Made by a program: the position numbers and the translations under genes. The notes below the pieces were generated by a model, which did no database searches, was not told the DNA's origin, and saw only the letters and a list, made by a program, of their open reading frames with translations. Positions 970 to 27,230 of a stretch of 64,000 nt of DNA are shown here, in pieces. The stretch spans positions 102,300,001-102,364,000 of the forward strand of contig OX597815.1 of assembly GCA_951406725.2 (NCBI GenBank), in the 5' to 3' direction. This DNA comes from Octopus vulgaris. Lineage: Eukaryota. The number at the start of each line of letters is the position of its first letter. Position 1 is the stretch's first letter.

Positions 970-1090
970 CATGCATACTTACATAGCATCATACAAACAT
1001 ACATACGTACATACATATCCATCCATCTATCCATCCATTCATACATACATACATACATACATACATACATACATACATACATACATACAT

Positions 1091-1637
1091 AGTAAACGTA
1101 ATAGACTTGACATAGTGATTAGGGATAAGGAACAAAAACTGTGTACGGTTGTGGAAATCAGCTGCCCAACGGATGTTAATATAAAGCTAAAGATCAACGA
1201 AAAAGAAAATACCTACGCTGTAATACTAAGAAATCTGCAGTTACTCTATCCAGATTATATGTCCAGGTTTATACCGGTCTTTACAGGAGCTAAAAGATAT
1301 GTAACAGACTGCCTAAATACCAATCTTGACAAATTAGGCTTCTCAAAACCAGGAAGGAGAAAGCTGATTCGAAGACTACAGTTCCAATTCAACACTGGAC
1401 CTGTAAAAATCTAAAATTTTCCAAAAGTTTATCATTTAAGTATATATGATCATGTCTAGATATGCAGCTATATGCATGAGAATACATGCATAAAGCAAAT
1501 CATACAAATCTGCACATATACATACAACAATAGCCTGCTGATGTTGAAATTCCTATGAAGGAGCCGTTGATCTAAGTTAGGAACCGGCTACTTCTCTATT
1601 GGCATGAAATATTGAAATAAAACTAAATAATGACGTT
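1091..1637 (+). mobile_element. 5'-truncated R4/Dong-like non-LTR retrotransposon (RLE C-terminus + 3' UTR) inserted in (CATA)n
   Basis: Frame of ORF 971..1414 reads NRLDIVIRDKEQKLCTVVEISCP...KENTY...LQLLYPDY..FIPV, matching the PD-(D/E)xK restriction-like endonuclease pattern RPD..E..P..K..Y. (CATA)n tracts flank it on both sides (1040-1090, ~1640-1742). Confidence 0.8.
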
Positions 1638-1742
1638 CATGCATACATACATACATACAAACATACATATACATACATACATACATACATACATACATAC
1701 ATACATACATACATACATACATACATACATACATACATACAT

Positions 1743-2810
1743 AATCCGGACTTCAGACTCGGCAATGACATCCCGGTCTCACTCCATTTCCGCTCTACAG
1801 GCCATTCGCTACATCTGTCTGCGTTTCGACTGTCTTTGCACAGGGGCCATCTGGATCCTTACCTTCGACGTGAACAAGAATTAATCTCCTGTCTTTGCTT
1901 TTTTGCTCCATATGGACTAAACTCACCTCCTCTCTTCATCTGACACCAGCCTCACCTCCTATTTTCATTTGATACAAACTCATTCCACGCACACTAGCAC
2001 TGACAACTTCCCAGCACCCACACCATACACCTCATCCCACCAAACAGTCTTCGATAGCGTCACCACACATACCATTATATGAGCAGCCACACACATTTGG
2101 TTAACTCCACACATTATCGTACACACTCCCACACGCACACAAGTGCATAATACCTGAACACAGACAATATATACTCTTACACCCACACAAACACATAATA
2201 CCTGGACACAGGCTATATATATACATATATATACACACGCAACACGCATTAACACACGCAACATACATAGAGAAAGATAACTTTCACCCACATATATACA
2301 TCATACACATGCACACTGTTTGATCAGAGAGACAAGCACACATACATGTGCACATCCACGTGAAAAAGCACACATCAACTAATACACACACAACACACAC
2401 ACACGTTACACACGCACAAACTCACACACATCAGTCACTCGCCCCTATTCACACTTATACTTATACATTCACACACACCATTCTCACATATAGACACATG
2501 CATGCGTACCTTCTCTTGGGATCACTATCACTTTATTATCTCCCTTTTAACCAACCTCTTTTTTTATTATTATCTCTCTTTCTTTCAACCTCCTTTTTTT
2601 TTTTATCAAGCATTCACCATGCTGGACCGCTGAAATCTACAATTTATTTTCATTCTCTCTCAATTTATTTTCTTTTATTTTTTTCTGTTGAAGAGCGTAG
2701 GCTCGAAACGTAAAATACTTTTTCATTTTTCTCGAGCGTCAAACTAATATTCTTGCTTGTTGTTAATACACCTGTCTTCGTCTTTTGTTTTTCTATAAAT
2801 TTCAGGTATA
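1743..2810 (+). mobile_element. Penelope-like element 3' fragment (GIY-YIG C-terminus, CA-rich spacer, pLTR-like tail)
   Basis: 1743-1943 translates NPDFRLGNDIPVSLHFRSTGHS...RREQELISCLCFFAPYGLNSPP*, the typical PVxxHF...REQxxI..L....PxGLN end of PLE GIY-YIG domains. The tail carries a hammerhead-like CTGTTGAA-GAGCgtagGCTC-GAAACGTA at 2685-2712. Confidence 0.7.
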
Positions 2811-2832
2811 TGTGTACACACACACACACACG

Positions 2833-2874
<42 letters not shown>

Positions 2875-2886
2875 CACGCACACACA

Positions 2887-2927
<41 letters not shown>

Positions 2928-3084
2928 GCACACATTATATATAAAAGGTGACTGAAAAGGCAACCACAAGAGGGGGCCGGATGCTGTTTGGGTGGATCAT
3001 GAAAAACGGCGTATCCCGAGGGATGTTGTGATATGGCAAGTTGAGGAGAGCCAAAACTACAAAAAAAAAAGACAAAAAATAAAA

Positions 3085-4184
3085 AGCAGAATTTTGAGCG
3101 GCCGAATAAACCACTGTTGAAATGTAGAGAATGTATTTAATCAGTTGATTGATGACAGTGAGGAGATCACCTGAGAAGTAACGAGAAACTCCTTAAGAAA
3201 AACAACCCAGGAAATACTTCTAAAGAAAAAGGAAAATAGAAACAATAAGAAACGGATGACTGAGGGGATCCTTTCGGTGATGACTAAGAAACAGAAGATC
3301 AGGAACAGGAAATCCGAAGAGAGTATAAGGAACTGGATAGACTGATTAAACGTAAATGCAGAGTGTCTAAAGAGACTTGGTTGAATGAATAGTGTGAAGA
3401 AATTGAAAGGTAATTTCCGGTAAGATGCAATGTACATCAGAAGAGGTATGAGATCTCTGGCAGAAAGTCAGGATGTATCAGAGCAAAGGATGGTACCATG
3501 CTGGTTAAGAAGATCGACATTTTGAATTGATGGACAGTACACAGGAAATTTATTTCATGATGCGACAGCAACCTTGCCTAGTTTTCCTAATTCTCATATT
3601 GGTCCAAAAGTTCCTGCCATCTGAAGTACATGCAGCCAACAAAATGACGAGGAAAAACAAAGCTGCTGGGCCAGACGGAATTGTCATCGAGATGATAAAA
3701 GCATTAGCAGAATATGGAACTAGAAAACTGATAGATGTAATAAGCAAGATCTATGATGATGGGAAATTTCAAGAAGATATGAGTAAATCCATCTTTACTG
3801 CACTCCCGAAAAAATCAGGAGCAGTGGATAGTGAACAACATCGCACAATTAGTATCAAGAGTCACGTTACAAAGATCATTCTGCGAAGGCAAGAAACAGA
3901 ATAACATCAGATTAGAATTAAACAGTTTGGCTTTATAAAGGGTGCAAGTACTAGGAATACTATTTATATAGTGAGAATGATAACAGGGCTGCAGTGGAGG
4001 TGTAAAAAAGACGTCTTCATAGGCGTAGGAGTGGCTGTGTGGTAAGTAGCTTGCTTACCAACCACATGGTTCCGGGTTCAGTCCCACTGCATGGCACCTT
4101 GGGCAAGTGTCTTCTACTATAGACTCGGGCCGACCAAAACCTTGTGAGTGGATTTGGTAGACGGAAACTGAAAGAAGCCCGTCG

Positions 4185-4237
<53 letters not shown>

Positions 4238-4510
4238 CTGTGTTTGTCCCCCAACATCGCTTGACAACCGATGCTGGTGTGTTTACGTTCCCGTAACTTA
4301 GCGGTTCGGTAAAAGAGACTGATAGAATAAGTACTAGGCTTACAAAGAATAAGTCCTGGGGTCGATTTGCTCGACTAAAGGCGGTGCTCCAGTATGACCA
4401 CAGTCAAATGACTGAAACAAGTAAAAAGAGAGAGAGAGTATGTGTTTCATAGATTACACGAAGTCCTTCGACAAATAAGACATGACATGTCATTTGAAGA
4501 ACTCAGTAAC
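3085..4510 (+). pseudogene. Degenerate RTE (BovB-like) LINE reverse transcriptase fragment, interrupted by a SINE
   Basis: Motifs NKAAGPDGIVIEMIK, SIFTALPKKSGA..HRTISIKSHVTKII and QFGFIKGASTRNTI, then after the SINE MCFIDYTKSFDK (RT domain 3). Stops and frameshifts are present. Confidence 0.8.
4020..4439 (+). mobile_element. tRNA-derived SINE family 1 (full length, internal TA/TG microsatellite, CR1-like tail)
   Basis: A-box TGGCTGTGTGG, B-box GGTTCAGTCCC, tail GGCGGTGCTCCAG..CAGTCAAATGACTGAAAC. Near-identical copies at 37528 and 38614. Confidence 0.9.
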
Positions 4511-4949
4511 CTTGTTCTGCTTTAACTAAAACACAGCCAACAGCATTGACTGAGTTGCGCTATTGTATTTTAAAGCCACGGCTTTCAATCTGCCCAGAGC
4601 TACCGCTGTTGGATATTTCCCTTTGATAACGGCTAACTAGGTAGAAATGCCGAGCCTGAGAATCCGATGGCAACGCTGCACAGATATGGTAGTTTTACTC
4701 TTTTACCATAAGAAAGAAATTTTCTCCACGGTAACTGAAGTAAATTTGCCTTTAGAAGTTGAAATATGTCACAAACATACTTTTCCTAGCCTAAAATTCG
4801 AAGATACATATATACATATATACATATAGATACACGCACACGCACACAAACACACATACATACGAAGACATGCATACACAGACACAGACAAACTGACACA
4901 GACAGATGCACACACACATGTACACCCCGCCACACACAAACACAGAACA

Positions 4950-5750
4950 TACTGAAAAATTTTGTGACAAATTTTTTAGAAGCTGTAATAACTGTCCTAT
5001 ATTACTGTAATTTTAATATGTCATTTGTTATTTATGTACATCAAATAAGCTGATCTGTCATCTTTGGTTATTCAAGATTAACGAAGACGGATGTAAAAGC
5101 ACTGTGAACACACCCAACTAAGTATTGTTTTTCATAACTGACTAGTATGTAGAATGCAGTCGGGAAGTGAAGATAATTTGAAAGCTCATATGCAATAAAG
5201 TGTTGTGTTAAGCTGGGAAAAAGCGCTACAGGAACTTATGAAATGCTCCACACTGCTTATGGATTAACTTGTAGGAGCCGAGCGTCAGTTTTCGGTTGGC
5301 ACAAGAGGTCAGGAAAAGCAACTCCACCTGGAAACTCATTATAACTTCTTTTTTCGACAGCAACGGCATCATTTACCTCTACTAGGCTCCTTCTGGTTAG
5401 ACAGTCAACAAAGAAAACTTTGTGGAGGTTTTATAGGAGTTCAGAGAGAGAGATTTCGTTGCAAAAGGCGTTGTGCAGATGTCGCTGATCCAAGTGCATC
5501 AAAATTGTCCCTCACCCTTCCCTACAGTCTAGACCTTGCTCTCTGTAACTTGTTGTAGTCCCTCAAGAAGAATGAGAAAATGGAGGAGGCTGTGACAAGG
5601 GTCCTTGATACATTCACTTTCGGGGACTTTTATGAATCCTTCACGAAGTGCACCGAATTCAGGAGATCCTACTTTGAAAGAAATTAGAGTTTCGTGCTTC
5701 TCTGAAATTAATAAATGTATTTTTCTGATAAAGTCTCAAAATTTTTAGAA
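4950..5750 (+). mobile_element. Internally deleted mariner (Tc1/mariner) transposon remnant
   Basis: N-terminal HTH YAIKCCVKLGKSATGTYEMLHTAYG..SRASVFGWHKR at ~5190-5310; degenerate YSPDLAP motif (PYSLDLALCN) at ~5520; degenerate inverted ends AAAAATTTTGTGAC (~4956) / GTCTCAAAATTTTT (~5733). Confidence 0.75.
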
Positions 5751-6656
5751 TGTATGTATGTATGTATGTATGTATGTATGTATGTATGTATGTATGTATG
5801 TATGTATGTATGTATGTATGTATGTATGTATGTATGTATGCACAAGTGTGTGTATGTGTGTACACGCACACATACTTCTAACCAGATATTCTGAACGTAA
5901 TTTCATCTATCTCACAGTAAGAAACTAAAATGTAATAGAACTTTTATATATTGGAAACGATCAACAAGAACAAGAGATTTCTCTCTATGCACACATTGGC
6001 ATCCAGAAACGTGGAAAAAGAAGCACACGAAATGATACCCACGTCGCTCTCTCTCTCTATCTGTATATATGTATGTATTATATATGATATGTGTGTGTGT
6101 GTGTGTGTTTGTTTGTCTGTGGACGTATTATGTGATGAATGCCCAGAAACATGCTTACATGACATTTCATTAAAAAATAGGTTAGAAGTTCTTCCGTTAA
6201 AATACCTGGTATCAAAATATACCTATTTCCAGTTTCCAATCAAAATTGTCATCCACAATTTTATTTTGCATTATTTTACTTTCATTTTCATCCAATATTT
6301 GTCAATACTATTCCATTACATTTTTTGCATCTGTTTATGTATCCACTTCTCTTTTATTCTCTCTATACCCATATAACATCTTAAGTTCTGCTTTATGTCA
6401 ATTAACTTTCCTGGTCCTATTTCCTCTTCCTCTCGACTTTCCTCACTCTCGACCCTTCCCTCTCGCTGCTACCTTCTTCTAAATGCGTCTTCATCTTCCT
6501 TTCTATTTTCTTTTCTCTTTCTATACGGTATATGTTTCCGTTCTACTAGAGGTGTACAAACGCGTTATTATTTCTTGAGAACGAACTTTTGACATTGGTT
6601 CAAAGTAATAAGACATATCTTCCTTAATTCAGTGAGTTACACACTGTATATATACA

Positions 6657-6746
<90 letters not shown>

Positions 6747-6774
6747 GCACGCACACACACACATGTATAGGCAG

Positions 6775-6806
<32 letters not shown>

Positions 6807-7456
6807 TTATCTATCTGTCTGTCTATCTGTTTGCCTGTTTGTCTGTTTATATATATATGCATATTCATACGTGTGTGTGTGCGTGTGTATGTATATATGT
6901 ATATGCAAATGTAAAAATATATATATATGTGAGTGCGTGTATGAGTATGTGTGTACATGTGGGATGTGTGGTGTGTAGGTAGATATGCAACTTTACTATA
7001 TATATATTATATGTGTACAGAAAACATCTAAATCTAGTTGATACAATACAATCTAAAAGTTCAGATATGAAAATAAATATTTTCAGATTTTGATATTTCA
7101 AAACTTCAAGCATTATATACACAATTACCAATAGGGAAATGTCGTATAATCACGCATATATGATTTATAACCGCACTGTGTTGTGTATTATTCACAAGAG
7201 AGGCGAAACACAACACAAAATGCAGAAGACCTAAGTAACTTTTTATTTTCTTTCCTCGGAGAATAAATGTATACGATTTACTGAAATATCATAATGATTA
7301 TGTTTAAACTTTTGGTCGATAACTAACCCTCATTCTACTTTTCCTAACCAACTCAAACCGGTCACCGTCTCTAAAGGCGACCACTCACTTAAAGTAGTGA
7401 ACTGTTAGTTCATTCGCCGCCATTGAAGATATGAAATAGAAACCGTTATATAGAGT

Positions 7457-7523
<67 letters not shown>

Positions 7524-8689
7524 CAAAGTGGAAGTGAGAATAAAATTGAGGAAAAATACATGAGAGAAAGAATAAGAGGAAGAGGGAGGGGGAATTATAA
7601 AAAGTGAGAGGGAAAGAAACATATCGTTCACTGGTAATTTTGTTTAATAGGCAATTGTCACATAGTCGCTCAACCTGCTGAAAACAACAGTCAAATCTCT
7701 CATACACCATCAACATAATTCCTGATATACAAATCGTCTCTGAAGGTGGTCACCCAATTGACGTATGTGTTAGTCTAACCACTTTCTCTGAAGATAAGAA
7801 ATTAGAAAACGTGTTAGGCGTGTGAGAAGAAGAGGAAAGTGAAGAAAAGGAACGCGCGAGAGAGAGAGGGGGAGAGGGGGAGAGAGGGAGAGAGGAATAG
7901 AGAGAAATGTTCATTTTATTCAATATGCGACTGACACATGGTCGTTCGACCTACCAAAATAATAGCTCAGGATCTCAGAAATTGCCCCTAGAAAAAGTGG
8001 GGAGAAAGAGGAAGAGAGAAATATCCTTCACTGGCAATTTTTGTTCCATAGATAACCCGCTGAGAATACACTACACACTCGCAAATCACTACATACCGTT
8101 TTGAAGAAATGCTGTAAGGAACAATATATTTCCTGATATACAAACAGTAGGTTGTCACGACTGAATTACCGTTCATCATTCTTCTGCAACTGATCTGAGA
8201 GTACAGCGAAAATTACGTTCGGTCAATGAGGTGGAAGTTTTCCCAGATCTAAGACATCCTAGATATAGCAGTTAAATTCCTCTCACCTCATAATCTACTG
8301 TCTGAATTCAGGAAAAGACACGCTGGAAAATGTAGCCCTATTTATACAAACAGACGAAAAATTTGCCCATGTGTGTGGATGTAAGTATGTATATATACAC
8401 AGGCACCCACAGACATACACACAAATACGTAAGTACAAAATGCTAGCATATCAACTGCTATTTGTTCTTATAAAGTTGTAATAACTAAAAATGGTGGAAA
8501 TTGCTTTTGACTGCGAAATGTCACTGAACGGATCGACAGAGTTTAACAATGGTGCTTGTAGACAAGGTACTACTTGTTTTCTCTCTCTTTTCCGCCCAAG
8601 AGAACATTGAAGACGCGATACAATACGTGACACAGATTCAGTGAACATCCAAGTTCATGGATACTAGCATGAAACCATAGAATGACAGT

Positions 8690-11482
8690 AGCTAGTTAAG
8701 AAGCTAGAAGAGGCAATTAGAAGCGGCATCGCATCCGACGTTTTGGCGGCGAGGTTGGCCCTCGACCAACACTTCAACGCCAAATACGAAGGGTGTGCTG
8801 TCAGGGCTAGGATGCATGCTCTAAGGAACGAAGGTGTTGGAGCCGCGAGAGAGGCCTGGGTGGCAGAGGTGCAACAGGGCAACAAAGCCACCATTCGGTC
8901 TCTGGTAGATGAACAGGGGCGCGAATTGATCGAGCCAAGTAAAATGTGTGAGGCCTTTCAACAGCATTTTGCCCGACTGTTCGGAACGAGTGGCGAGCAA
9001 GAGAGGCAGGGTGCTGCGAAGGTGCCATCACGGCGGCGGAAGTGCAGGACGCGATGGCAGAATGCTCGGGGGACAAATCACCGGGTTTGGATGGTCTACC
9101 CTACGAGCTTTACAATTGTATGCCAGACTTGTTTGGAGATGTCTTGGCAGCGGTGTACTGCAACTGGCAGCAAAACGGGAGCATTCCTGGTTTTGTGAGC
9201 CGAGGAGCCGTAACACTGCTGAAGAAAGATCTAAACAAGGGAAATGTAATAGATAACTTTAGGCCCATCACTCTGTTTAATGCAGACTTGAAAATTTTGG
9301 CCAAGGTGCTAGCCAAGAGGTTGGCGCTTGTCATCGAGAAACTGGTCGACAAGGCGCAAAAATGCGCCGTGCCGGGCCGGACCATCCATGACAACCTCCA
9401 CCTGATGCGCTACATCATAGACAGGGTAGTTAACGAACCTGGCATGGTTGGGGCGCTGATCAATTTGGATCAATCGAAAGCTTTCGATAGGGTGGACCAT
9501 CGGTACTTGGAGGCAGTCCTCAGAGCGGCTGGCTTCGGTACCGTCTTCCGCGGCTGGATAGTCGCTTTGTACAGAAGTATCCGTTCGGTAGTTCGCGTAA
9601 ATGGACATCTATCGAGACCTTTCGACATCGCACGTTCGGTCCGTCAGGGATGCCCCCTCTCATCGCTTCTATACGTATTGACTCTCGAGCCATTATTGCG
9701 GAAGCTGGCAACTTTGAGGGGCATCCCGCGAGAACTGGGATGCGGGACGAGCGTGTCTGCATACGCGGACGACGTCACCGTCATAGTGTCTAGCCACAAG
9801 CACATCGAGCAGGTCGGCGAGACACTGAAAAACTACGAAGCGGTGACAGGAGCGAAAATCAACCGGGAAAAGTCAGTGGGCTTGCGACTAGGCACCTGGA
9901 GAAGCAAGCCCATGCCGTCCACCAGCGCCTCCGTCGTGGGACGCTGGCCCGACGGCCCGGTCGAGTTGCTCGGGGTCTGGTTCGGTCCGGACCTCCAAGT
10001 GGAGAAGAACTGGAACGAGATAACGAGTAGGGTGGTCACTCTCGCCCGGCAATGGGCCGAGAGGAAACTGTCCCTAAAAGGTCGGGCGGAGGTGGCGAAC
10101 ACGTACATCGCGTCCGTCATCTACTACCGCCTGACCGTCGTGCATTGTCCCGACCCTACCATCACCAAACTAGAACGCATTCTCTTTCGCTTCTTGTGGA
10201 AAGGATGCGTCCCGATGGTCAGGCGATCCATTTGCTGTCAACACCCGTTAAAAGGAGGACTGGGCATGCCGTGGTTGATGATGCGCAGACACGCGCTGAG
10301 ACTGTGACATCTCAGGCTCTTCGTAGGCGACGGTGAACAGGTGTGGTCGCCGTTTGTGAGGCACGCTTTCCCGTAGCTCGTCTCCATGACCGAACTGCAG
10401 TCGTGGATCAAAAAGAGGCCGAGGAAGGGCGAATGGCACCGCGAGTGTCGCGTTGCTCTCAAGCAACTCTGCCGTCCTGGGTCGGCTTTGAGTGACTCCA
10501 TCACAACCAAAGCATTCTATAGGGGATTAGTGGAGGGGAGGTACGACGACGAGCTCGGGGCGAACCTGGACGTCGACGAGGAGTACCTGACCCGCCTGTT
10601 TGGGACGATTTTCGGGCCAGGGCCCATGGACAACTTCCAGAGATCCCTGGCCTGGCAGTGCTACCGAGAAGCGCTACCCGTTCGGGATAAGCTCTACAGA
10701 CACGGCTCGAGAAGCACGGGGCCGACCTGTCCGAGATGCAGTCAGAGCGACGAAACCGTTCTGCACACACTCGTGCAGTGTCCAACAATCTCCGACCTGT
10801 GGGCTTATGTCGAACAACTGCTGTCATGTGTGGGACGAGTCGGTTTATCAGCTGAGTTTATCGTCAATATTGTCACGCCTCCTTCATTCAAACGGGAAGG
10901 AAGAGCTATTTTCATCATCCTTGTGGCTATGGCGAAGAAATGTATCTGGTGGACGCGTCTGAAAGGATTGGAGACAAACACTTTCCTCTCTGGTCAATCT
11001 CTCATCAACTTCTTCAAGTACCACTTGAAAAGGAAAGTGAGAGTAGAGAGGCAAGTTTTGTCTAGCGAATGATTTAAAAAAAGATGGGTGAATGTAGCAA
11101 GAATGGCACGTATGAATGACGAAGCTACCTTGAGCATAATCCTATGAACCCAGAAATTGAAAACAGAGGGTTACCCACTTGCAAATAAATGTGGTAACAT
11201 ATAACAATATTGACCGAGGTTACCGTGGTCTTTTTCGTAGGCTTTTCTTCCCACGGATAAACCTTATCTGCTTTTCCCTTTACACCGTACATCATGACAC
11301 TGTGATACACGATCCCTATTGATCGTTTTTTTTCCTCTCCCCCTTTTTCCTCTTTTTTCTTCCTTTTTTTCCCCCTTTTTTTTCTTTTCTTTTGTTTTTT
11401 GTTTTTTTTCATCCCACAAAAGAAAAGCTCTACCTTGTAATTTCTCCCATCTGTGTGCAGCCCTGTGTGGCCAATAAAGAAA
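8690..11482 (+). mobile_element. 5'-truncated Tx1/L1-clade LINE (ORF2 RT + zf-RVT, 3' UTR)
   Basis: GC-rich island. RT motifs KSPGLDGL, FRPITLFNADLKILAKVLA, LDQSKAFDRV, VRQGCPLS, YADD; C-terminal CPRC..ETVLH..C. T-rich 3' UTR ending AATAAAGAAA followed by (CTAT)n. Confidence 0.92.
9042..11147 (+). pseudogene. Tx1-type ORF2 reverse transcriptase reading frame with three in-frame stops
   Basis: ORFs 9042..10307 and 10386..11072 share one frame. Stops at 10305 (TGA), 10374 (TAG) and 11070 (TGA); the frame continues FKKRWVNVARM... to TGA at 11145-11147. Confidence 0.85.
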
Positions 11483-11577
11483 CTTATCTATCTATCTATC
11501 TACTTATCTATCTATCTGTATATATATATATATATATATGCATGTATATGTAAATATATCTAAATGTATAAATATGC

Positions 11578-11634
<57 letters not shown>

Positions 11635-11845
11635 CACACACACCCAGTCTACGTGTATGACTGTGTGTGTGTATGCAGGAACGCAGGAATATTGAGCGTT
11701 TTAGTATTTTGTGTATTACATAAAGGAAAGTAATATATTACCACGTTGTTTACAGCACACGCGCACGCACAATACACATACACACATACATGTATACATG
11801 TACGTATGCAACTATGTATGTAGGTGTATATATATATGTGTGTGC

Positions 11846-11879
<34 letters not shown>

Positions 11880-13139
11880 TTCGAAGTCTATGTATATTAC
11901 TAAAGCAGGGTACATTTTCTATCCTATTTCCAGTTGTTTATTAAAATAAGATTTCATATTAGCTATCACTTATATATCATAGGTGTTCATTGAATTCCAT
12001 GTATTGATGCAGAAAAAGCAATCGATACACATATGGTCAAATTGTTAAGTGTCTTAGGTCGATTGAAGCCATGTGAATGAAACTGGGTCCACAGTCGCTG
12101 TTTGGAAGCCCATTGAATGGATTGTTCTGTAATTTAAAGACCTAGCTTTACGTTACGGCCACACACATGTCCTTAGAAGATTCATCCACTTTGCATGATA
12201 ATTTTTACAGAAAGGATAATTCATTTGATCGAACTGAATATAAAGCGTATATTTATCTGTATCTACATTCAAAATCAGGACTTGAATTATTTCCTTTTAT
12301 TCTATTGGTACATTTTTTTCCCCGGAGATCGAAATACCATAGCCTTCTTCTATAAAGAACCGCCACAACAAAACTGAGAAAACTGCGTGGAAACGTAAAA
12401 CTCTGAAGGTAATAAATGCATGTGTATAAATTGAATATTCAAAATTGTTAGGTATTATCCAAATTGCATATCACTGTTTCTGTGTCATCAATATGAACAG
12501 GTGTGCGTACACACGTATTGATATAGATAAGTAAAACACGTATCCGTACATTGAGATATTATCGCATTGTTATAGCGACTAGTTTGATTATTTTATCTCT
12601 TCAACAGAATCTGTTATTTTACTAACTGGTATTTACTGTCAAAGTAAATATTTAATATTTACATTTGCTACGCAGATGTGTGACACTTTTATATAAACAT
12701 TGATATCAGTATTATGTATATCTCAACAAAGATGTGTATGTATGAGTGCTTATAACACACATATATGCATTACTATTTGTATAAATGTACTATATATAAT
12801 AAACGTGCTTACATCAATGTTCGCGTATGAGAGCTTACAATAAAAATAAGTATATATTAATGCGTATATTTTAAACACATATATTAAAGTGTAAAACAAT
12901 GTTTATAAAACGCATACATGCATAAATGTGTTTATGAGCATATATAATATACAAGTTTATACTTTGAGACAAGAGTCGTTATATTCTCAACGACATTTCC
13001 ATATTTACAAACATACACACAGTTATACAGCAACACGAGCACACACATCTGTAAATGTATATCTATCTATTAGAATATGTGTGCGCGCGTATGCATGTAT
13101 ATATAAAAGTGTGTGCGTTTGGTAAGATAGATGTATATG

Positions 13140-13186
<47 letters not shown>

Positions 13187-13222
13187 TCGCATACATCGAA
13201 ACGAGTGTTTGTCTGCCTGTAC

Positions 13223-13253
<31 letters not shown>

Positions 13254-14915: not shown

Positions 14916-14951
<36 letters not shown>

Positions 14952-15076
14952 AAGATGTGTTTTCTAGTGTATGCCTGTGTGTGTATGTTTGCGACTATAG
15001 AATAGGAAGAACGGTTCTGTCATTTTCAATCATTTTCTCTCAATTCTGATGAAAAAATCAGATAACAATTATAACG

Positions 15077-15158
<82 letters not shown>

Positions 15159-15499
15159 GAGAGAAAAGATAAAAATACAGTGATAGAGAGGGAGAAAAAG
15201 AGTGTATAGTAATATACTTGTATGGAAGTCATTTCAGAAATACAATGGAAGGAAATGATAAAAGAGTCAAGCTGAACATCGAGATTAAACCAGTAAAATG
15301 TCCGATTGTTGTGCGCAATAAACAATCACATACTCAACTCACCTTATGGTGATGTTTAAGTATATATAAATACACACACACACGCACACACACACACACA
15401 CACGTACACATACACACACACACACACGTACACACACACACACACACACACGTACACACACGCGTATATAACTATATACATACAGATATAAAAATACAA

Positions 15500-16080
15500 T
15501 TCAATTTAACTATAGCCATCATGGTTGAGGCCACGCTAAAACACTGCCCTTATGGCTAAATGTTCTGCTTCTATTGTGTCTGCATATCTTGGGGTACTAA
15601 ATTTTAGGAGTTTTATTTATCCATTTGCATGGAATTTTTAATTGTTGGATCTAAAATATGGTGGAATTTGCCGGCTTTGCTTTAGGCTTTTGTAGCTGGC
15701 TGATCAAACATACAAGAAGAAACGTGTCTATGTATCTAATAAAAATCTCAGAGGAAACTGTACTTAAGCTTGATAAGAAGGCTGGGAGGCAATTGAATAT
15801 TTGCGTACCTTTGAATGTTAAATTGCTGCCGTATTGTAGTCGTGAAGAAGCTTTTTATTACCAAAGGCTAATAGGAAGTTCATGAGAAACCCCGGTGATC
15901 ATCAATGCTGAGAAAAATAATGAATCTTTAAAAAGTTTATGGCCATGCAGCTTATATTGAATTCTGTTTTAGTATTAAGCCTTAGTCAGTTCTTTTCTTT
16001 TTCCAAATGAGTTTTTAGAGCATTTCATTTCAATGGCTTCAAATTTTAATGTGGGTGAAGTTTATTAGGCGAAAGAGAAT
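15500..16080 (-). mobile_element. Old CR1-group (Zenon-like) LINE 3' remnant
   Basis: Minus strand reads YGSNLTFKGTQIFNCLPAFLSSL..IDTFL, like the C-terminus at 33770-34030. Degenerate tail GGCAGTGTTTTAGCGTGGCCTCAACCATGATGGCT at ~15512-15548. Confidence 0.55.
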
Positions 16081-16225
16081 TCTTGTTTTTATTTCAATAT
16101 TTGACGTGAGGTTTTCACATATATATGATGACACAGAATCCCCGTCGTTGTTATTTTGCAGCGATGAGCAAGGATTGTATTGCTTATTGAAGATTCTACG
16201 ATAAAACAACACCTCCATTCACATC

Positions 16226-16309
<84 letters not shown>

Positions 16310-17436
16310 TTCAAAAGTTTGAATGCAGCTCTCACATATACAGCAAAACGGGATATGTACTTTAACATGTATATGTACTTTAACAGTTGATAACTGAATT
16401 TTAATTTCTTTTGAGAAAATATCAGAAATAATGAAGGAAATCAGATTAAGCTTTGGATAAATGAAAATTAGCCTAAAGTGCTACTGGAAGTTTGAAACCG
16501 CAGTCGAAGTACTCAGGTAGTTTAAGAGGGGGATTCAAGCAGACCTACCTAGTGACATACCATCACCCAATTAGAGATAAATTTTAAGCAGATAGAAATA
16601 CTCAGAATTTCACAAGAAACGTTCCGAAAGACCGAGGACATCGACACTACACAAAGAAAGAAAGAGCACTAGAAATGTCTTTCCCGAGTTCAGGAACGTC
16701 TGTGTGGAAAGCGAGTGAGGGACAGGAATTTCAAAATTAGGCGTTCATCACATTTTGATGTGCTCCCATTTGAAACTTTACATTTTAAAAATAGTTCATA
16801 CTCTCAATGAAAATGATTCAGACCGAAGAGTGGAGTTTTCTGAGAGTTAGTTAGCGCGATGCTTAGACGATGCACACTTGCCGACAAAGATTGTTGGGAG
16901 TGACGAGGTTACATTTAAATTAAATAGCTCAAGTTATCTGCTGCTATTGTACACTATTGCACTAAGAAACTACATATTGCGGAGGACCACCATGGTAATT
17001 TACCAGGTGATACAGTATGGTGTGACTTATCATCAAGAGGATTGATTCGACTATTCTTTTTCGATGGTACTGTGACCGGTCCCTTTTACTTAATTCAGTC
17101 GAAACTGTCATGTCAAGCATTCAAGAGGACTATGAAAATGTGGAGTCTTATTTCCAGCACTCCTACACTGACAAAGGATGAGATTTTGCCGAATAGATGA
17201 ATTGGGTGAAGGGGTTCAGTAGAATACCCTCCGAGTTCACCAGAGCTCGAAATTTCTTTTTATAGGAATACATAAAGGATAAAACTTAACATACAAAATT
17301 AGCAACAGTCGACGAACTGAGAGCAGCGATTGAACGAGAATGCACACAAATACCGAATGAAGTGTTTCTTGGTAGCTGCAATTTCATTATTTCGCGTTAT
17401 CAGCAGAACTGTAATTAGTTTGAAAATAGGCGTTCA

Positions 17437-17459
17437 TCTGTATATCTATAAAAGGCAGG

Positions 17460-17524
<65 letters not shown>

Positions 17525-20087
17525 TGTACGTGAATGTAATTTATGCACGTCCACAAATTAGCATGCATATCGCTCCAATTCGACCCTAGCTGGGTTTTGT
17601 CAACTTATTTTCCCCTCGGTTAGCAGTAAAAATCGATTTTCATCCGTAACTTTTACCAGTTTTTACGTCGGTGAAATCCGTTGTTTGCTAACATGAGCTA
17701 AGTACCCTGCAATGGCGACTATTATACAGAAAAAACAAAGATAAACTATTCCGTTTTTGGATTTGGTTTGCCAGATTCTTTATGTGAGTTCGTGTGATCT
17801 GAAAGAAATATACATATAGTTTTAATTATACAGAAAAACAAAGATCAACCGCTCTGAAAGAAATGTATATACAGTATACATATAGTATACAATATGTATA
17901 TATTTAATTTTTCTATATATTTAATTTTAAATGAAATTTTGAATGTTAGATAATTAATGATGGTTTATTTAATTAGAAAACAAAACCTAATGACGATGTA
18001 ATTAGCAACTAGCACATTTTGTTCCTTAGTTTTTCTTTCCTTCAATATTTAAATTCTTTACTTGACTTATTTTTTATTACTATTCGCTAGAAACCTCACG
18101 ATAGTCTTTGTTCAGCCGCAACATTCTTTTCATTCATTTATGTTTATGAAATTCTCTGTACGTACTTCTGCTTTCTCGGTGGTCGAAGCAAATCGATGAC
18201 TTCGTGCTGTAGCCATTTTCTTTCTGATGTGATTTAAAGCATTTTTTGATATGTGGCATTTCAACATTAGAAACGAGTTCCGAAAATGCTATTCAAGTTT
18301 GCTGAAACTTATCTCCTGCCACTCAAAAGAACAACTCAAATAGGATAAAGAGTACACGCATCACAACAACAATAGCACCAAGTGTGTGTTTGTGTGTGTG
18401 TGTAGACTTACAATATATCCTATTGTTAAAAAAATTTTTACACGATCATTCAATAAAACTCAAATGGGATAAAGAGTACACGCTTTATCCGCCGATACAG
18501 TGCAACGGGAACCGCTTGGTAGTTAAGTCCCTGACGCCTAAGTTTATTGAGGCTACCATTGTTACAGGGTGCGGGAGGGGGAAAATGTTTTCATTTCAAG
18601 GATGCACCTTTATCCCTCGGGGTCAGACATGCCGTTTAACTTCCGCAGATTGCCATGTCCATCAACAAATCGCAAGGCCAAACACTCGGTGGCGGGCATC
18701 CATTTGGGGGAAGCCGTGCTTTTCACATGGGCAACTTTATGTGGCCTGCTCCCGTGTGGGGAGTAGAAACACTCTTTTTGTGTATGCTCCTCAGGGCAGA
18801 AACGCAATGTTGTCTATAGCGACGTTTTATAGACGTAGAAAGAACAAGTCATCATTGCAGCCGATGTGGTTATAAACAGGTGATCCGGAAGCGTTGGCCG
18901 GACATACTCTCAAATATGGCAACATGATTCATAGACTCTTCCTCTTCTTTATTAGACAATGCTGACTTCTTCAACAACAATGCTCACTCGGCCGATATCA
19001 GTGCTTGGACAAGTTGCTCATAGAGTTAGTAGAAGGGACAGGTCCCTTATTTTTTTTTGTTAAGGCTGTTGGCAAGTTTTCCTAAGTTACTCCAGCCCGG
19101 ATCCCCAATGCAAACCTTCGAATCAACCTTCTCCAATGCGGATATCTAAGGCAACCTTATCCAATTCAAATCTTTGAGTCGACATTCTTCACTGCAGATC
19201 TCCAATGCAAACCTTCGATGCATCCTTATCCAATGCAAACCTTCGATGCAACCTTCTCCAATGCAGATCTTCGATGCAGTTTTGACCGATAGTACCCCTA
19301 GGAGGGGTTAGGACTAGATCGGGATTAGTAGCCGCCTTTTAGAAGCACCCGAGCCCTCTTTCGCTAGATTAGCTTAGGCTTAGGTTAAGACTTAGTTGTG
19401 ATCTGAACATAACCTCTTCTGACACAGGATTAGGAGCCCTTTTGGGCGTTCTATTTTCCTTGCCGGAAGGGTTCCCAACACATGGGCCAAAGGAGGGGGT
19501 TTTAGGTGGGTTTGAAAGGGCCAGCATGTGCAACCTGATCACCTCTGCCGATCAAACTCCCAACACATGCGCTCCCGTGACGACACTGATTCTGCAGAAC
19601 TGGGATGGGTGTGAAAACCAACTTTAAAGTATAGATCTTTTGAATCAGCAATGTTGTGTTCGGTTAAGTCCTATTTGGGTTGAAAATCAATAAACCAATT
19701 CCTTATGGGGTTTTCCATACAATCAGGATGAAAAATCGATAAACTGATTCCTTATAGGATTTCCCACTAAAATTGGCTACACCCCATTTTCAACCATAAC
19801 TTTTACCACTTTTGACGTATTTTGTTCAAACTTGATGCCGGCGTTACTATGGACTCATGGGATATTTGACTGCTTTAAGTTCTAAAAAAAAATCCCCAAA
19901 AACAACAATCGATGATTGGAAAAATCGATAAACCGATACCGTATGGGATTTCCCAATCAAATTGTCTGCAACCCATTTTCAGCCAAGCGTTTACCAATTT
20001 CAATTTGACGTCGGTGTTACTTAGTTTGGTATGAAACAAAGCACTTGATTAGCTTAATAATCCTAACTTAATCCCGGCCAATGCTAG
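17437..20087 (+). mobile_element. Non-autonomous Helitron carrying a PIF1-like helicase fragment
   Basis: A|TC 5' end (TCTGTATATCTATAAAA followed by (TG)n) and CTAG|T 3' end at 20084-20088. Internal helicase C-terminus at 18500-18830. Internal sub-repeats at 19100-19280 and 19680-20020. Confidence 0.75.
18500..18835 (+). pseudogene. Helitron RepHel PIF1-like helicase C-terminal fragment (frameshifted)
   Basis: CNGNRLVVKSL..IEATIVTG / ENVFISRM..PSGSDMPFNFRR / INKSQGQT / PCFSHGQLYVACSRVG across three frames (SF1B motifs V-VI). Confidence 0.88.
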
Positions 20088-20768
20088 TAAAATAATAAAA
20101 TTCAGTCTGTAGATTCTGTCAAATTTTTGAAAATGAAATGTATATTAATATGCACTGAATTCATTATTTTATGTATGTGTATATATTTTTGGGACACCTT
20201 GCACATGACAACATAGAAGTTGTATTGTAGGAGCTTAAGGGCGGAGTCGGAAGGCATTCCGATTCTTGTTACAGTAGCTTTTTGTTTTGGTAACATTTTA
20301 GTTCTGTTGGTATGAGTTAGGTTGTTAAAAATTTGTTGTCTAATGGATTTCCAATATGTCACTGTATTTCTATGGCATGAATAACAGATCGACACTGAAG
20401 TAGACTAATTTTTGTTTTTATTTTTAAATCTAGAAACTCACATGCATATCGGAACAAGATCTTTGGAATTGTTTTTATCCATTTAGCCCGTCAAAATTTC
20501 TTTTACTGATCGTTCTTTTTCATAGGAGGGTGTGAGTAGCTGGAATAGCTTTATTTATTATTTTCTTTAACGTATCGTATATTTAAAATGAAAAAGTACA
20601 CTTGTGCATTCGAATGATATAAACTAGTATCGATGATTGAATTTGATATTTATTTATTTAAATACCGACAACTGTATGCCAGACTTCTAATAGCAGAAAT
20701 CAGCAGCAACATCAAAATTGGTAATTTGCTTGTGTGGTGACGGTGAAAGATGCTGTTAATTCTCCAAC

Positions 20769-20968
20769 TGGTTTCAAATTTTGGCACAAAGCCAGCAATT
20801 GCAGGAGAAGGGCAAGTCAATTAAATAGACTCCAGTGCGCAAATAGTACTTGTTTTATCGAGCCAGGAAGAATGAAAGGCAAAGTTGACTTCGGCGGAAT
20901 TTGCACTCAGAACATGGAGACAGACAAAATGCCACTAAATGCTAACATTTCTACCACTCACCGCCTTA
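20769..20968 (-). mobile_element. tRNA-derived SINE family 2, degenerate copy
   Basis: Reverse complement of the 21010 unit (AAGGCGGTGAG head, GACTTTGCCTTTCAT core, TTGTGCCAAAATTTGAAACCA tail). Confidence 0.75.
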
Positions 20969-21008
20969 ATGCTGTTTATAATATTATTAAAAAAACATAA
21001 GCATAATC

Positions 21009-21582
21009 AAGGTGGCGAGATGGCAGGATCGTTAGCACGCCGGGCGAAATGCTTTGCGGTATTTCGCCTGCCGTTACGTTCTGAGTTCAAATTCTGCCGA
21101 GGTTGACTTTGTCATTCATCCTTTCGGGGTCGATCAAATAAGTACCAGTTACGCAGTGGGGTCGATATAATCGACTTAATCCGTTTGTCTGTCCTTGTTT
21201 GTCCTCTCTGTGTTTAGCCCCTTGTGGGTAGTAAAGAAATAGGTATTTCGTCTGCCGCTACGTTCTGATTTCAAATTCCGCCGAGGTCAACTTTGTTTTT
21301 CATCCTTTGGGAGTCGATAAATAAAGGACCAGTTACGCAATGGGGTCGATATAATCGACTTAATCCGTTTGTCTGTCCTTGTTTGCCCTCTCTGTGGACA
21401 ATAGAAATAGGTATTTCGTCTGCAGCTACGGTCTGAGTTCAAATTCCACCGATGTCGACTTTCCCTTTCAACCTTCCGGGGCGATTAAATAAGTACCAGT
21501 TACACAGTGGGGTCGATGCAATCGATTATCCCTCTTCCTCACCAAATTTTCAACGTTTTGTGCGTAGAGTAAAAATAATTAT
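21009..21582 (+). mobile_element. SINE family 2 tandem trimer
   Basis: Head with A-box TGGCAGGATCG and B-box GAGTTCAAATTC. Units restart at GGTATTTCG at ~21058, ~21242 and ~21410. Central GACTTTG..TTCATCCTTTCGGGGTCGAT..AAGTACCAG resembles the Meta/Sauria-type SINE central domain. Confidence 0.85.
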
Positions 21583-21779
21583 TAAAAAAATAAACATGAA
21601 TGCATACCACTTTCTTTCGAGTTAAAATTGTTTTAAAGAAGGTAGTCTGCTAAAAATGGTTGGTTTGAAACGTAGGCGAGACTTAGAGTTGGGTTATGCT
21701 TAAAACAAATATCGACATGTGCCATAATTACATTTCTGATTCTTTTAGAGTCCTCCAATACAGATCTGTTTTAATGCGT

Positions 21780-22560
21780 CATTTTCGTTTGAATTTCAGT
21801 TGATTTTCTTTTGGAAATAATGTATCAGTTTATGTGAATTAAAACTTGGTACACTCCCCTCATCATTCTTCAAAAATTGGAAAAGTGACATTTCTACAAT
21901 GCTGCTGGCCGCATTCAGCCTAGGTAATAGTAATATAACTGAAGAATCTCTAGTACAGAAGACACATAAGATCCATTCTGATAGCAACAGAAAGGAGAAA
22001 TTGTCGGACATTGGGATTTAAATCGCAGATTGATTTTGATTAATCGCTTATTTGAAATAGTTAATGGAATACTTCCTTAATGACTGTAGCCATTCATAGC
22101 CTGATACTAGGTATAATAAGTTTAACCAGATAACAAGAGGCAGGATGTCTTTTTGATAATGTGTGGAGCCATATTTGATTTGTTTGTTGCTGCTTCTGAA
22201 ATGCATTGTGTCTTTGTAAGGCATTGAATAGCGGCTGTAAGTGGTTATGGAACTTTGGCTAATTAAATGCTTTGATAACCCTTCTATGCAGCACTTTTCT
22301 CTGATAACACTACAGCCATGGTCTTTCTTATTGATTCTAAGATCATTTTGTTGACAGATCCACTGTACAGCCCCATACTTCTTTCGCCAAGCCTTCACAG
22401 GTATTATAATATTGTTTGGTGGCGCAGTGATCTTTATTGAGACAGCCATGTATTATGTATCTTATACATAATGTTCTAGCTGGGTTTTGGGCGGCAATGT
22501 TTAGCTTGTGTGGTTTTATTTCTTTTGTTTTGCTGATAAGACTGATGTTTAGACCGTTCA
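21780..22560 (-). pseudogene. Possible highly decayed hAT-like transposase remnant
   Basis: Minus-strand peptides EWLQSLRKYSINYF (RW..WL..Y-like) and LLLPRLNAASSIVEMS (hAT dimerisation-like SxxVERSFS). Many stops; weak evidence. Confidence 0.3.
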
Positions 22561-22640
22561 AATGTACACGTGCTCATTCCATAGTGTTATATATGTATGT
22601 ACATAAGCTTATGAATTTATGTGTTTTGTATGTATGTATG

Positions 22641-25600
22641 AACTTTTTTTAATTATCTAAATTATTCCTTCGAGGAAGACGCTGGTTTCTTACGAAGATA
22701 CAAAGCTCTATCGTTGGAATGATAGATAACTAAAACAACGACACATTTTAAACTTGGGAAATGTCTTGCATATTTTGACTGTCCTATTTACAGATTGCAT
22801 TTGTAAGGTGCAAGTTAATTGGTTGATTTCTTTTTCTGAAAATCTAAGCTTATCTAGAGTGTCACTTAGACATTTTCTCACAAAACCAAGTATACCAATT
22901 ATTATTAGTATAAATGTAAATTTGTAATCTAGGTTTAGAAGCTGGAGGTTTCGAAGCAGTTGCCCATAGTAATCGTCTTTCTCTTTGATTTTCAGTGGGA
23001 GACTGATCTCTATGACTGCATATTTTCCTCGTCTGTTCCTAACAACAATATCCGGCATTTTATGCTTGTACTTGACAGATGTTTCGGTGGGAATTTTCCA
23101 CCAGTATTCCTTGTGTTGATGTTTGTGTATGTATTCAACAACAAGGAGTTTCTCTATATTTATCTTAGGACCGTCTTTTTTTCCCGAATGGCATTGGATA
23201 TTGTTTTTGCGACAACATCATGACATTATATCCAGGTCTTCTTTGAGATATGTTAGTCCGGCTGTTTTGGGGGTAGTATGGGAGGTAATTAGGAAGAGAG
23301 TGCTTCACTTTTTAGCATTAAGTTAATACATTTATTTTTGCGGCTGTTGTTTAGCAAGTGCTATCTGAGAGAGACTATACGATATTCGAAAACTGTCTAC
23401 ATTGATCTCTAGTCGCCATCTGCTTTATCCCTTCTTAGAGCCTGTTGATATCCCTCTTATAATGGAGATTTCCCCTTGACTTCAGAATTTTGCGGGTATT
23501 AACGTCTATGAAGTGGATACTTTAATCAGACTAGTCAGGCATCCCAAATGTTGGAATCAGCACTGGTACTGAAAATGCATTGTGAGATATTGTCTTGTTA
23601 TAAGAGAAGATTCCTGACTGCCATATTTTTCTAAGACTAGCAAAGTATCCTCGAGTTACAATCTTTATTCTCAGTATCTTCGCATTGCATGTTTTTATCA
23701 ATGCTTAGGTACATGTAACATTCTTTGTATGGAACAGGTGAGATAGTGAAACCATTGATGCACAAGTTTTGAGTCTGGGGGACTGATTTTCTCCGTTCAA
23801 CTATCAAATATGAAAATTTCTTTTGGCCAAATTCCATTTCATATGTTAGCTGAAAATGTTATTAATTCCAACTATTTTTTAGCATTGTTAACATTTTAAC
23901 ATAAATCTTGAGGTCACCCACAAAGAATTTATGTCCTACATTAATATTTCTAGCAGTTTGCAGACACTAAAGTGAGTCCATTTGATTTTTGTAGCAGGAA
24001 TGATAATGGATTTAATGTCAAAATGAACTGAATTACAGAAAATCTATTTGTTTGGAATATTCCCTTTGACATATTTATAACATTGGAGTTAATTGCTCCG
24101 CTCTCAATTTTTAGCGTAAGGATTGTTGCCCAGGTCTTTACGAATCTCTCAATGGTGGCAGTTAAGATAGCAAGTACTTTTGCAAAATGGAGACACTTCA
24201 ACAATCATGAGTGGAGAATAGAGTCAAAGTCCTTCCTATAATCAAGCCATATTGTTGTAAGGTTCCTACGATATTTTTTTCATTTCAGACAGTACAGCTT
24301 TCTTTATCAAGAGTTGTTCAGCACATCCTCACACACCCTTCTTTCCACCAGCCTGTTCATAAGTCACTATATTGTTAGATTCACAATAATCCTGAAGGAA
24401 TTGGTTGAGGAAGCTTGGGTACAGTTTGAAATAATATTTAGGCAAGCAATGAGTCTATAGTTTTCTGCCACCTCGGTGATTTCATTCTCGGCTACAAGAT
24501 TTGTCCGTGCTATGACATGCCAATTGGATATGTCAATCTCATCTGCCATAATGCATTTGCCTATACATATTAGTTATTTCTTGTAAAATATTAGCCTCGT
24601 ATACCTGTATCCAACTATTAGGTCCATTTCCGGTGCCTTCCCATTATGGAGTTTGGCTACAGCTACGGTGAAAGTTTTCCGGTCAATTGTATATGCTTTA
24701 AAGTATTCTCTCCTTACTGCATTTATCCACGATGCATTAAGGTTGAAGTCCCTCTTTTCGTTCCAATTTGTCGACCAAAATGATGCAAAATTTTATTGAG
24801 AAGGGATTTTCTTAACGGTAATATTTTCCATTCTTATCTCTTTGTGTAATGTCTCTGAATTAGAAGCACGCTTGTAATTTTTACAGGTTCGCTCAGAAAT
24901 TCGCCTTCGGTAGCGAAGATGTTTGCTCAGCGTCTCGAGCTCGTGTTTTAGAGTAATTAACCTTTCAAGAGCTTGGTGTGAAGAATCACCACAGAGTTTT
25001 ACTAATTTATTCGTAAGATGTTATTGATGAGGTGTAAACTCATTATTCCCCTTACATTTCATTCCCCTTACATATTATCGTGGTTAACCATCCAATATGG
25101 CAGTGCAGATTGTTGATGTTTTCTTCGAGTTTTGTTTTCCATCTAGGTTGCTTCCGTTTAGTAGTTTCATTACCATATGTATACTGCAGATTTATCCTAG
25201 GTGTTCTTTAAGAGTGATAGCAGTAGTGTATGAAGGTATTAATATTCCAATTAATTAACATCACGTGATTCTATATGATCTCCAGTTCATGGAATCATGA
25301 TAACTTTCTATATTGGAGCTGTTAAATTTTTTTCTTAATTTTGTTAGGAATGACTTGTTGCTTAACAGTAATTTCGAAAACAGAAAAGTTTTCTACGGAC
25401 TGTGGTTTCAGGTTGTTTGTAAGTTGAATATATTTCCCAGTTATCTCTGTTGACTCAGCTACATTTGGAGAAACTCGAGAATCTAGTGATGGCGGCAGTG
25501 GTTTGTTTGCACTATTTTCGATCTCTCTTCTGGCAAGTTTTGACCAGTTTTCAGTGATTTGAGAAGATGGATTTACATCACAAGAGCAAGCCATTTTTCT

Positions 25601-26327
25601 ATTTGGCTTGCTACCGAAGTTGTTTCGTTGTAATGGTGCTTAATTTGAGATGAGCTTCGTCCCAGGATTTTTATAAACGCTTCATATATCTGATAGAAGG
25701 GTCTTCACGGGCTTTTTCTTAGCCTTACCTGGTTTAGATTTAAAGTTCAAATAAAATGGAAGTACTTATGTCTTCTCAGATAGCTTACTGGTATTGTAGT
25801 ACTGTTTTTGCCGGTGGTATTGTTCTGAATTTCGACCATGATCATGTTAGCGAAATTCCACGTGGTATAAGGAATATTTTTTAAAATCAAGTTTGAATAA
25901 CGCTCCGAGGGTAGGCTCAAAAGTACCTAAGCTGTTTATGAAGGAGTGATGTTAAGGCTGTGAAATCTTGCATGCTTCTATTTTAACTCTTCTTATTAAT
26001 AACTGTATACTTTCATTCCAAGTAAATTAATCTCTGATTGTTCAAAGAAGACTTCAGATACCTACAGGTAAAAAAAATGGGGTCTCCCCTCCCAGGACAC
26101 TCATTCGGACATACTTGCTACATTAGGGAATAACACCCCAGCTTTATTTATAGTGCAAAAGTGGGTTGCTGAATTTAGGACGGGAGTAAAAGGTGTTTAT
26201 TTATAATTGGAGAAATAAACCAGTTATTGATTTAGGCTAGAGGAGTTGAGATAAATGTAGAAAAAATGCTCCAAAATAAATTTTAAACGGTACTCTACGC
26301 CTGCACATCTGATAGTGACGGCGCCAT
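22641..26327 (-). mobile_element. Near full-length but decayed R4/Dong-like retrotransposon between (CATA)n tracts
   Basis: Minus strand in order: EQAGGKKGV*GCAEQLLI, IWLDYRKDFDSILHS*LLKCL, KGIFQTNRFS..LNPLSFLL, HKFFVGDLKIY (YMDD-like), CHDVVAK (RHD motif), PDIVVRNR..VIEISLP..KDDYYGQLLRNLQLL (RLE homologous to 1091-1414). Confidence 0.85.
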
Positions 26328-26759
26328 ATGTACGTGCGTATGTATGTATGTATGTATGTATGTATGTATGTATGTATGTATGTATGTATGTATGTATGTA
26401 TGTATGTATGCATGCATGTATGTATGTATGTATGTATGTATGTATGTATGTATGTATGTATGTATGTATGTATGTATGTATGCATGTATGTGTGTACGTA
26501 CGTATATATGTATGTAATGTATGTATGTAATGTACGTACGTACGTATGTATGTAGGTAATGTATGTATGTATGCATGTATGTATGCATGTATGTGTGCGT
26601 ATGTATGTCTGTGTCTATGTATGTATGAGTGGATGTGTGCGTGTGCAGGTGGATTCGTGCCGGTTGGTATATATTTACATATGCTACTATGTGAAAGCAT
26701 GTATGTTTGTACACCTTTAAATATGACTTTTTAAAATTGCTTATGTAAAACACGTGTAC

Positions 26760-27230
26760 GTATATTCATTGTAATTTATTGAACATTTTTTGTAAGAAGT
26801 CAGATTACCTTTACGAAATGTGTTGCCTCTTTCCGGTGTACCAGACGACAATTAGTTGTTGGAAAATGGAATCTTTTAACAATACAACAACTTTTTCCAT
26901 CTTTCCGTCTCTCCGATAGACGAAATCCTGTCTATAGAAATAAGCAGTTTACTAGCAAATGGAAGAACGTCAAAATGGTAGATCCTAAAGCTTTGAAATG
27001 TCTAATGTCTTGCATATTTTGACTGTTTCTTTACTGGATAATTTGTAGAATACGGATTAAGAAACTTATGTTTATTTCTCGTTAACGTAATCTTCTTACT
27101 TCCAAAGTGTTTGCATATGTAAACATGCACAGTTGGTTATAACTGTAAATATGTGAACTTGGGACCAGGGTACAGAGTACAAATGCTCATAATTTTGTTT
27201 TTATCTTTGCTAGGCTTGACTTAGATGGTC
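26760..27230 (-). mobile_element. Third, very decayed 3' fragment of the CATA-associated R4-like family
   Basis: Shares ATGTCTTGCATATTTTGACTGT (~27005) with 22761 (TVKICKT). Minus-strand LYPGPKFTYLQL resembles LYPDY-KFTFI. Confidence 0.5.

Follow-up and report, generated by a model that had tools for sequence, protein, structure and literature searches.

Two related subfamilies of decayed retrotransposons, A and B, which we assign to the R4/Dong clade, lie in (CATA)n microsatellites of the Octopus vulgaris genome, and it is very probable that they arrived there by sequence-directed target-primed reverse transcription. Both have a fixed 3' end, variable 5' truncation and no LTRs, and both are RLE-type non-LTR retrotransposons. 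An earlier note, made from the window (the whole 64,000-nucleotide stretch of DNA that was analysed), had proposed an R4/Dong-clade RLE family tied to sense-strand (CATA)n at both ends, and the junction counts and the phylogenetic tree described below bear this out. The features of the window on which the analysis is built are the following.

925..1091, + strand: (CATA)n array adjoining copy 1 on its 5' side (TRF period 4, 41 copies)
1092..1634, + strand: copy 1, 5'-truncated subfamily A (A 3489-3880 at 85.7%, 3934-4044 at 83.9%)
1638..1743, + strand: (CATA)n array on the 3' side of copy 1 (TRF, 27 copies)
22629..22640, - strand: three CATA units on the 3' side of copy 2 (from the sequence)
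22645..26327, - strand: copy 2, near-full-length decayed subfamily B (B 5-3815 at ~74%, in four segments)
26327..26627, - strand: 300-bp (CATA)n array adjoining copy 2 on its 5' side (TRF, 74 copies of TATG on the + strand)
27004..27026, - strand: 23-nt match to the ORF end of copy 2 (TVKICKT), remnant of the former 'copy 3' (sequence comparison)

Copy 1 spans the last 560 nt of A and contains the end of the RLE coding region, the 3' UTR, inside which a CATA tract has decayed (about 1482-1524), and the terminal stem-loop motif; we infer that the array at 925..1091 is the upstream half of its target. Copy 2 retains a Myb-like N-terminus, RT and RLE, with many stops, frameshifts and internal deletions. 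CATA on the sense strand at both sides of these two copies, as first described, was recovered as TRF arrays or units at all four flanks. Three copies had originally been recognized, and the first two stand as members of the family (A at ~85% and B at ~74%). The third (26760-27230) lacks LRNLQLL, RT/RLE homology and the 3' UTR, has 23-24 nt in common with copy 2 and can be no more than a very small fragment. The segment 26780-27260 (481 bp), tried as a family member, matches only itself in the genome, and because these surroundings are unique the supposed head-to-tail arrangement of copies 3 and 2 around one CATA array drops out. The C-terminus said to be shared by all three copies is likewise absent from copy 3, while copy 1 keeps LRNLQLLYPDY and has lost the final CKT by a small deletion. 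The shared 3' UTR motif proved to be family-wide in an alignment of 3' ends. The ending 'GTT|CAT', in turn, is a coincidence of private decay in copies 1 and 2, as none of 30 other aligned 3' ends finishes in GTT; the family end is GA|CATAC, with nearly all aligned ends reading TGA or AGA and then CATA.

Subfamily references were derived from long genome copies (A, 4,046 nt; B, 3,824 nt), and copies were aligned to them instead of being delimited by all-against-all boundary calling, which overran into microsatellites. Peptide searches of the genome (G000, 2.8 Gb) returned at least 150 matches each. The majority sequences carry a single ORF, of 991 aa in A and 822 aa in B, and the two proteins are 63% identical. 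Their motifs include RT FVDD, a CCHC finger (CxxC-x8-H-x4-C) and an RLE with RHD and PD..E..K. At the N-terminus A aligns with the Dong-type, SANT/Myb-like motif W..E.N....Y..A....GYM.RLK..W...HPE....QL..Q and has no zinc fingers there; the Myb-like motif could be aligned for A, the B reference being broken in that stretch. Relatives at about 50% identity match RVT_1 in Pfam, and the Pfam search of window peptides gave no RLE match. Copies are at a median of 91% and a maximum of 96% identity to their reference (116 A and 77 B fragments), and no complete frame occurs among the A/B matches listed in each genome search; for these two reasons both subfamilies are apparently extinct. The last 19 nt of A have 1,276 exact matches in the genome, which by our own estimate scales to roughly 7,000 A 3' ends if copies are 9% diverged. 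The A 3' UTR carries a second CATA tract ~113 nt before its end. Three loci within 21.1-22.3 Mb of contig C1 of G000 (L304, L305 and L307) have one 113-nt A end in common and do not differ in the 40 nt upstream of it, probably as a segmental duplication or as a short element that carries the A 3' end. A further B copy (93%) lies ~1.3 kb before the window start (G000:C2:102298040-102298654; L395 4040-4654, - strand). There also appears to be a third variant, B-like but more diverged and distinct in its 3' UTR, of which several copies also end in CATA; it comprises L055, L062, L066, L070, L074, L076 and copy 2 of the window (73-79% to B in those measured).

The CATA at the 5' side is the decisive evidence, and it was counted at junctions scored as positive when at least three CATA lay in the 30 nt outside the element. 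Thirteen redundant loci were left out, as were fragments <150 nt and those of A that began within its final 250 nt; a few overlapping loci may remain in the set. Pooled A and B 5' junctions showed sense CATA in 89 of 204 cases, antisense CATA in 2 and AAT in none; sense AAT was also absent from all 121 true 3' ends. Truncated junctions alone gave 83/192 with sense CATA, against 2/192 with antisense CATA and a CATA background rate of 2.0%, and these 83 are spread over 80 distinct element positions, so that the CATA is not element-encoded. When only the 100 truncated junctions with any simple repeat upstream are considered, 81 have sense CATA, compared with 610 of 4962 background repeat windows (12%); TA is the commonest background repeat and yet is found at 2 of these 100 junctions. 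Enrichment of the 5' flanks over background, also when matched for microsatellites, and a constant orientation, which the earlier note had proposed to check, thus both come out on the side of targeting. A held-out batch of junctions was weaker and pointed in the same direction (13/45 sense, 0/45 antisense), and full-length A 5' ends had sense CATA in 21 of 30 cases and antisense in none (30 of 59 pattern matches were examined).

At the 3' side, 896 of the 1,276 exact A 19-mers run on into CATA in a fixed phase, a share close to that expected if a junction once uniform has decayed by 9%, and CATA was found at 0 of 34 secondary (broken) 3' ends. The copies also nest head-to-tail in one another's CATA tails: 24 of the 204 5' ends follow the 3' end or internal array of another A/B copy at a distance of no more than 700 bp, and in 17 of these cases the intervening DNA is mostly CATA-like. 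Young AAT Dong elements of the same genome have AAT at 31/31 true 3' ends and at 14/14 truncated 5' ends, and CATA at 0/25 5' ends. Given the sense-strand 5' enrichment, the CATA-free broken ends and the AAT-only junctions of Dong, we regard CATA as the target and not just a tail, and we consider with high confidence that the A/B family is (CATA)n-associated and target-specific. The fixed orientation of the copies within CATA repeats is likely due to directed insertion there.

Several observations bear on how strict this targeting was. No simple repeat lies upstream of 92 of the 192 truncated A/B 5' junctions, in contrast to the young AAT Dong, in which all 14 truncated copies have one. True 3' ends pass the same CATA test in 72 of 121 cases and secondary breaks make up 34 of 155 3' ends; from these two rates decay predicts ~47% of CATA-bearing 5' junctions against 43% observed, roughly enough to account for the shortfall. 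Targeting by A/B may nevertheless have been looser in its specificity. The CATA status of 5' and 3' ends is uncorrelated across 114 copies (29/21/38/26, p=1). No empty (pre-insertion) site was seen, nor did any of 12 extended loci clearly show a nested insertion dividing a host 3' UTR into two parts. Microhomology at 5' junctions averaged 2.1 nt against 0.8 expected (66 junctions) and was set aside as evidence because BLAST end effects may inflate it.

The mechanism we favor for A and B takes the R2 model as its guide, in which 3' UTR binding, target recognition and target-primed reverse transcription are described in the accessible parts of PMC10499050, PMC4838377 and PMC13580325. By analogy with R2, the protein would bind the stem-loop of its own 3' UTR, the repeat would be read by the RLE together with the Myb-like domain at the N-terminus and the basic arm specific to the clade, and a nick on the (TATG)n strand would prime cDNA synthesis. 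If the RNA reads through into a few CAUA bases, these may pair with the primer and set the phase, and early termination of the cDNA would then leave a junction with upstream CATA. The 3' UTR stem is itself a suggestion: RNAalifold returned no consensus structure for this motif, and although a stem placed by visual inspection is paired in 88% of cells, its covariation does not exceed shuffles (29-229 of 500).

Sequence alone does not separate the share of the protein in this specificity from that of RNA pairing. A loosely specific nuclease could have opened sites at which the CAUA tail of the RNA annealed to (TATG)n and so picked them, placing the specificity in the RNA; we consider this unlikely, though it is the most serious of the alternatives. 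It fits the fixed phase of the 3' junction and the 30 of 88 A copies that stop at or near the internal 3' UTR CATA tract, as internal priming would yield, although deletion between two CATA tracts could also produce such endings. The R2 systems point both ways, as avian R2 requires at least 4 nt of pairing between 3' tail and primer (in the part of PMC13580325 available), while Bombyx R2 initiates without 3' homology and loses nicking without ZnF/Myb (from the portion of PMC10499050 at hand). Against RNA-borne specificity, the A/B branch carries at its N-terminus a conserved basic arm and a Myb-like domain that together differ from those parts of AAT Dong.

Another alternative is that the elements had no site preference and that the CATA is self-made, by an encoded 3' tail and, at the 5' end, by template jumping to RNA rich in CAUA or later microsatellite seeding. 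About half of the 5' junctions have no CATA, and A does spread CATA arrays by virtue of the internal tract in its 3' UTR. Sense CATA at 80 truncation points would, however, need template jumping in >40% of insertions and always in the sense direction, secondary 3' breaks have none, the AAT-targeting Dong shows the same two-sided pattern, and free CATA arrays are common, with 13 perfect tracts of at least five units in the window, mostly away from any copy. We therefore judge self-made CATA to be improbable. Least credible is a passive association in which old elements and CATA arrays gather in repeat-rich regions of a genome that is indeed very microsatellite-rich, since it is contradicted by the strand bias (83 against 2) and by the motif bias against TA, CA and AAT, and CATA adjoins the copies within 30 nt and not at secondary breaks.

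The proteins nearest to those of A and B are 48-56% identical and include one cluster from Argonauta hians, whereas the local AAT Dong is 30-33% identical to the A/B protein. The C-terminus of the Argonauta relative finds nothing closer than 59% in the O. vulgaris genome, its top matches being largely A/B loci. Searches of metagenomes found 80 loci, and the flanks of 35 were inspected. The two closest full-length relatives, L211 and L212 (49-53% identical), lie in a different tetranucleotide: L212 has (CTTA)n at both sides; for L211 the array is at the 5' side, and none is present where the contig ends on the 3' side. No array accompanies a third close relative, L213, which is incomplete. More distant metagenome loci have mostly AAT, ATT or poly-A ends, and two adjoin LSU rRNA. 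A scan of prokaryote genomes turned up four stray contigs.

The IQ-TREE phylogeny (28 of 59 rows, SH-aLRT values only, rooted at the midpoint without an R2, NeSL or HERO outgroup) used references named by their flanks (AAT, LSU rRNA) and not by Repbase names. It groups the rDNA elements, the AAT/ATT Dong elements (SH-aLRT 96) and a branch of A, B, L211, L212 and the Argonauta protein (100), which is closer to Dong than the rDNA-flanked R4-like elements are. On this tree A and B thus appear to fall within the R4/Dong clade, on a branch apart from AAT Dong. An SYRR-NRDY-like arm before the Myb-like domain is common to the A/B branch and absent from the aligned AAT types. A structural model of P0137, a protein 52% identical to A (mean pLDDT 69, pTM 0.44), matches R2 proteins best and has a three-helix bundle at residues 25-78 (pLDDT about 80) and a C-terminal helix-strand, RLE-like core. 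Within the Dong group itself, a sub-branch (L231, L232, L234, L236, L237 and L238) ends in (ATT)n or poly-A and not in (AAT)n, which suggests a flip of orientation or a target change there too.

The earlier note had regarded the family as a sister lineage whose endonuclease had switched its target. Its separateness from AAT Dong holds, but a local switch from AAT does not, since identity is only 30-33%, the branch is separate and widespread, and its other members with readable flanks lie in (CTTA)n. It is probably an old tetranucleotide-targeting R4 subclade, and the whole branch likely targets C(A/T)TA tetranucleotides, a claim that for the wider branch has two contigs as its basis. Beyond this, and with slightly more doubt than belief, we offer the view that the branch is an undescribed, widespread R4-type subclade, sister to AAT Dong, which specializes in tetranucleotides (CATA in this genome, CTTA in marine relatives) and reads them with its Arg-rich arm and Myb-like domain, and which in this genome both used CATA arrays and seeded them by way of the target copy in its 3' UTR.

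The window contains other mobile elements. A young 5'-truncated AAT Dong (61402-63145, + strand) is 97% identical to a full-length copy and lies between large AAT arrays. Its C-terminal peptide has at least 150 genome matches, all of those listed being 100% identical and several of them lying in open frames of 1,268-1,316 aa, so that the young AAT Dong family looks recently active. This copy and L146, on different contigs, are both truncated at reference position 2301 on the 5' side, which points to duplication of a segment or to a hot spot of microhomology. Older, diverged Dong-type fragments at 58742-59667 and 45810-46653 (both +) are at 63-70% DNA identity to the young family. Another non-LTR element (8692-11072, +), with matches to RVT_1 (E 5e-31) and zf-RVT, is one we take to be L1/Tx1-like, and decayed RT fragments at 33770-34862 (-; weak RVT_1 match) and 3509-3904 (+) are presumably CR1-like and RTE-like. 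A 1.5-kb array at 35528-37032 repeats the 14-bp unit ACACGCACGCACGC in about 110 copies (TRF).

Elements of the R4/Dong clade are known to target rDNA or microsatellites, mostly (TAA)n, and a SANT/Myb-like domain has been reported for them (consulted portion of PMC7998251). Dong elements (Bombyx Dong, DongAg, DongBg, ostracod Dong1/2 and the local AAT Dong) share with A and B a single ORF with SANT/Myb-like domain, RT, CCHC and RLE (same portion of PMC7998251), as well as microsatellite insertion with fixed orientation and phase and 5' truncation. They differ in their target, (TAA)n instead of a CATA tetranucleotide, and in the RT motif, (Y/F)MDD against F(F/Y)VDD in the A/B branch; the SYRR-NRDY arm of A/B and the internal target-like tract of the A 3' UTR are additional. 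Nematode-type R4, represented here by L255 and L258 adjoining eukaryotic LSU rRNA, has the same domain order and RLE motifs, but its target is a unique site in large-subunit rDNA, its identity to A/B is 25-28% and it lies outside the group of Dong plus A/B. R2 proteins (9nl3, 9dou, 9nl2 and 8gh6) are the best solved-structure matches of the close relatives in sequence and fold, though with a 28S rDNA target, N-terminal zinc fingers and about 16% identity.

Microsatellites serve as a safe multicopy target for other families, among which Rex6 and EhRLE were left out of the comparison. The ACAY target of Waldo (WaldoAg1, WaldoAg2 and WaldoFs1, R1 clade) covers the ACAT/CATA repeat (PMC3812793, in part); Waldo elements have an APE-type endonuclease and occur in insects, and since they are a different element group a target common to Waldo and A/B would be convergent. 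Togen (TG)n, Kibi (TC), Koshi (TTC), Mino (AC) and some HERO elements (PMC4640811 and PMC3812793, both in part) resemble A/B in using microsatellites, but belong to different clades and use different repeats. Dong-R4 elements have been reported in cephalopods, with no target analysis in the available text of PMC13282606, PMC9115989 and PMC10294476. The accessible parts of PMC4640811, PMC3636483 and PMC7650587 describe no CATA or CTTA family, and a literature search, whose scope did not extend to Repbase, Dfam or supplements, found no R4/Dong family with either target. Those sources may already list A and B.

The A/B family represents a new target for a known mechanism, the mechanism itself not being new. 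The CATA and CTTA versions, one base apart, form natural pairs with which to ask whether the Myb-like domain, the endonuclease or the RNA tail sets the target. If the proposal is true, one-base changes of target would be mappable to few residues, and the question of what sets the target bears on RLE-based gene-insertion tools. For the octopus genome, thousands of copies with an internal CATA tract would be a source for part of its CATA microsatellites, and the same family would be a reason why such CATA markers may share flanks.
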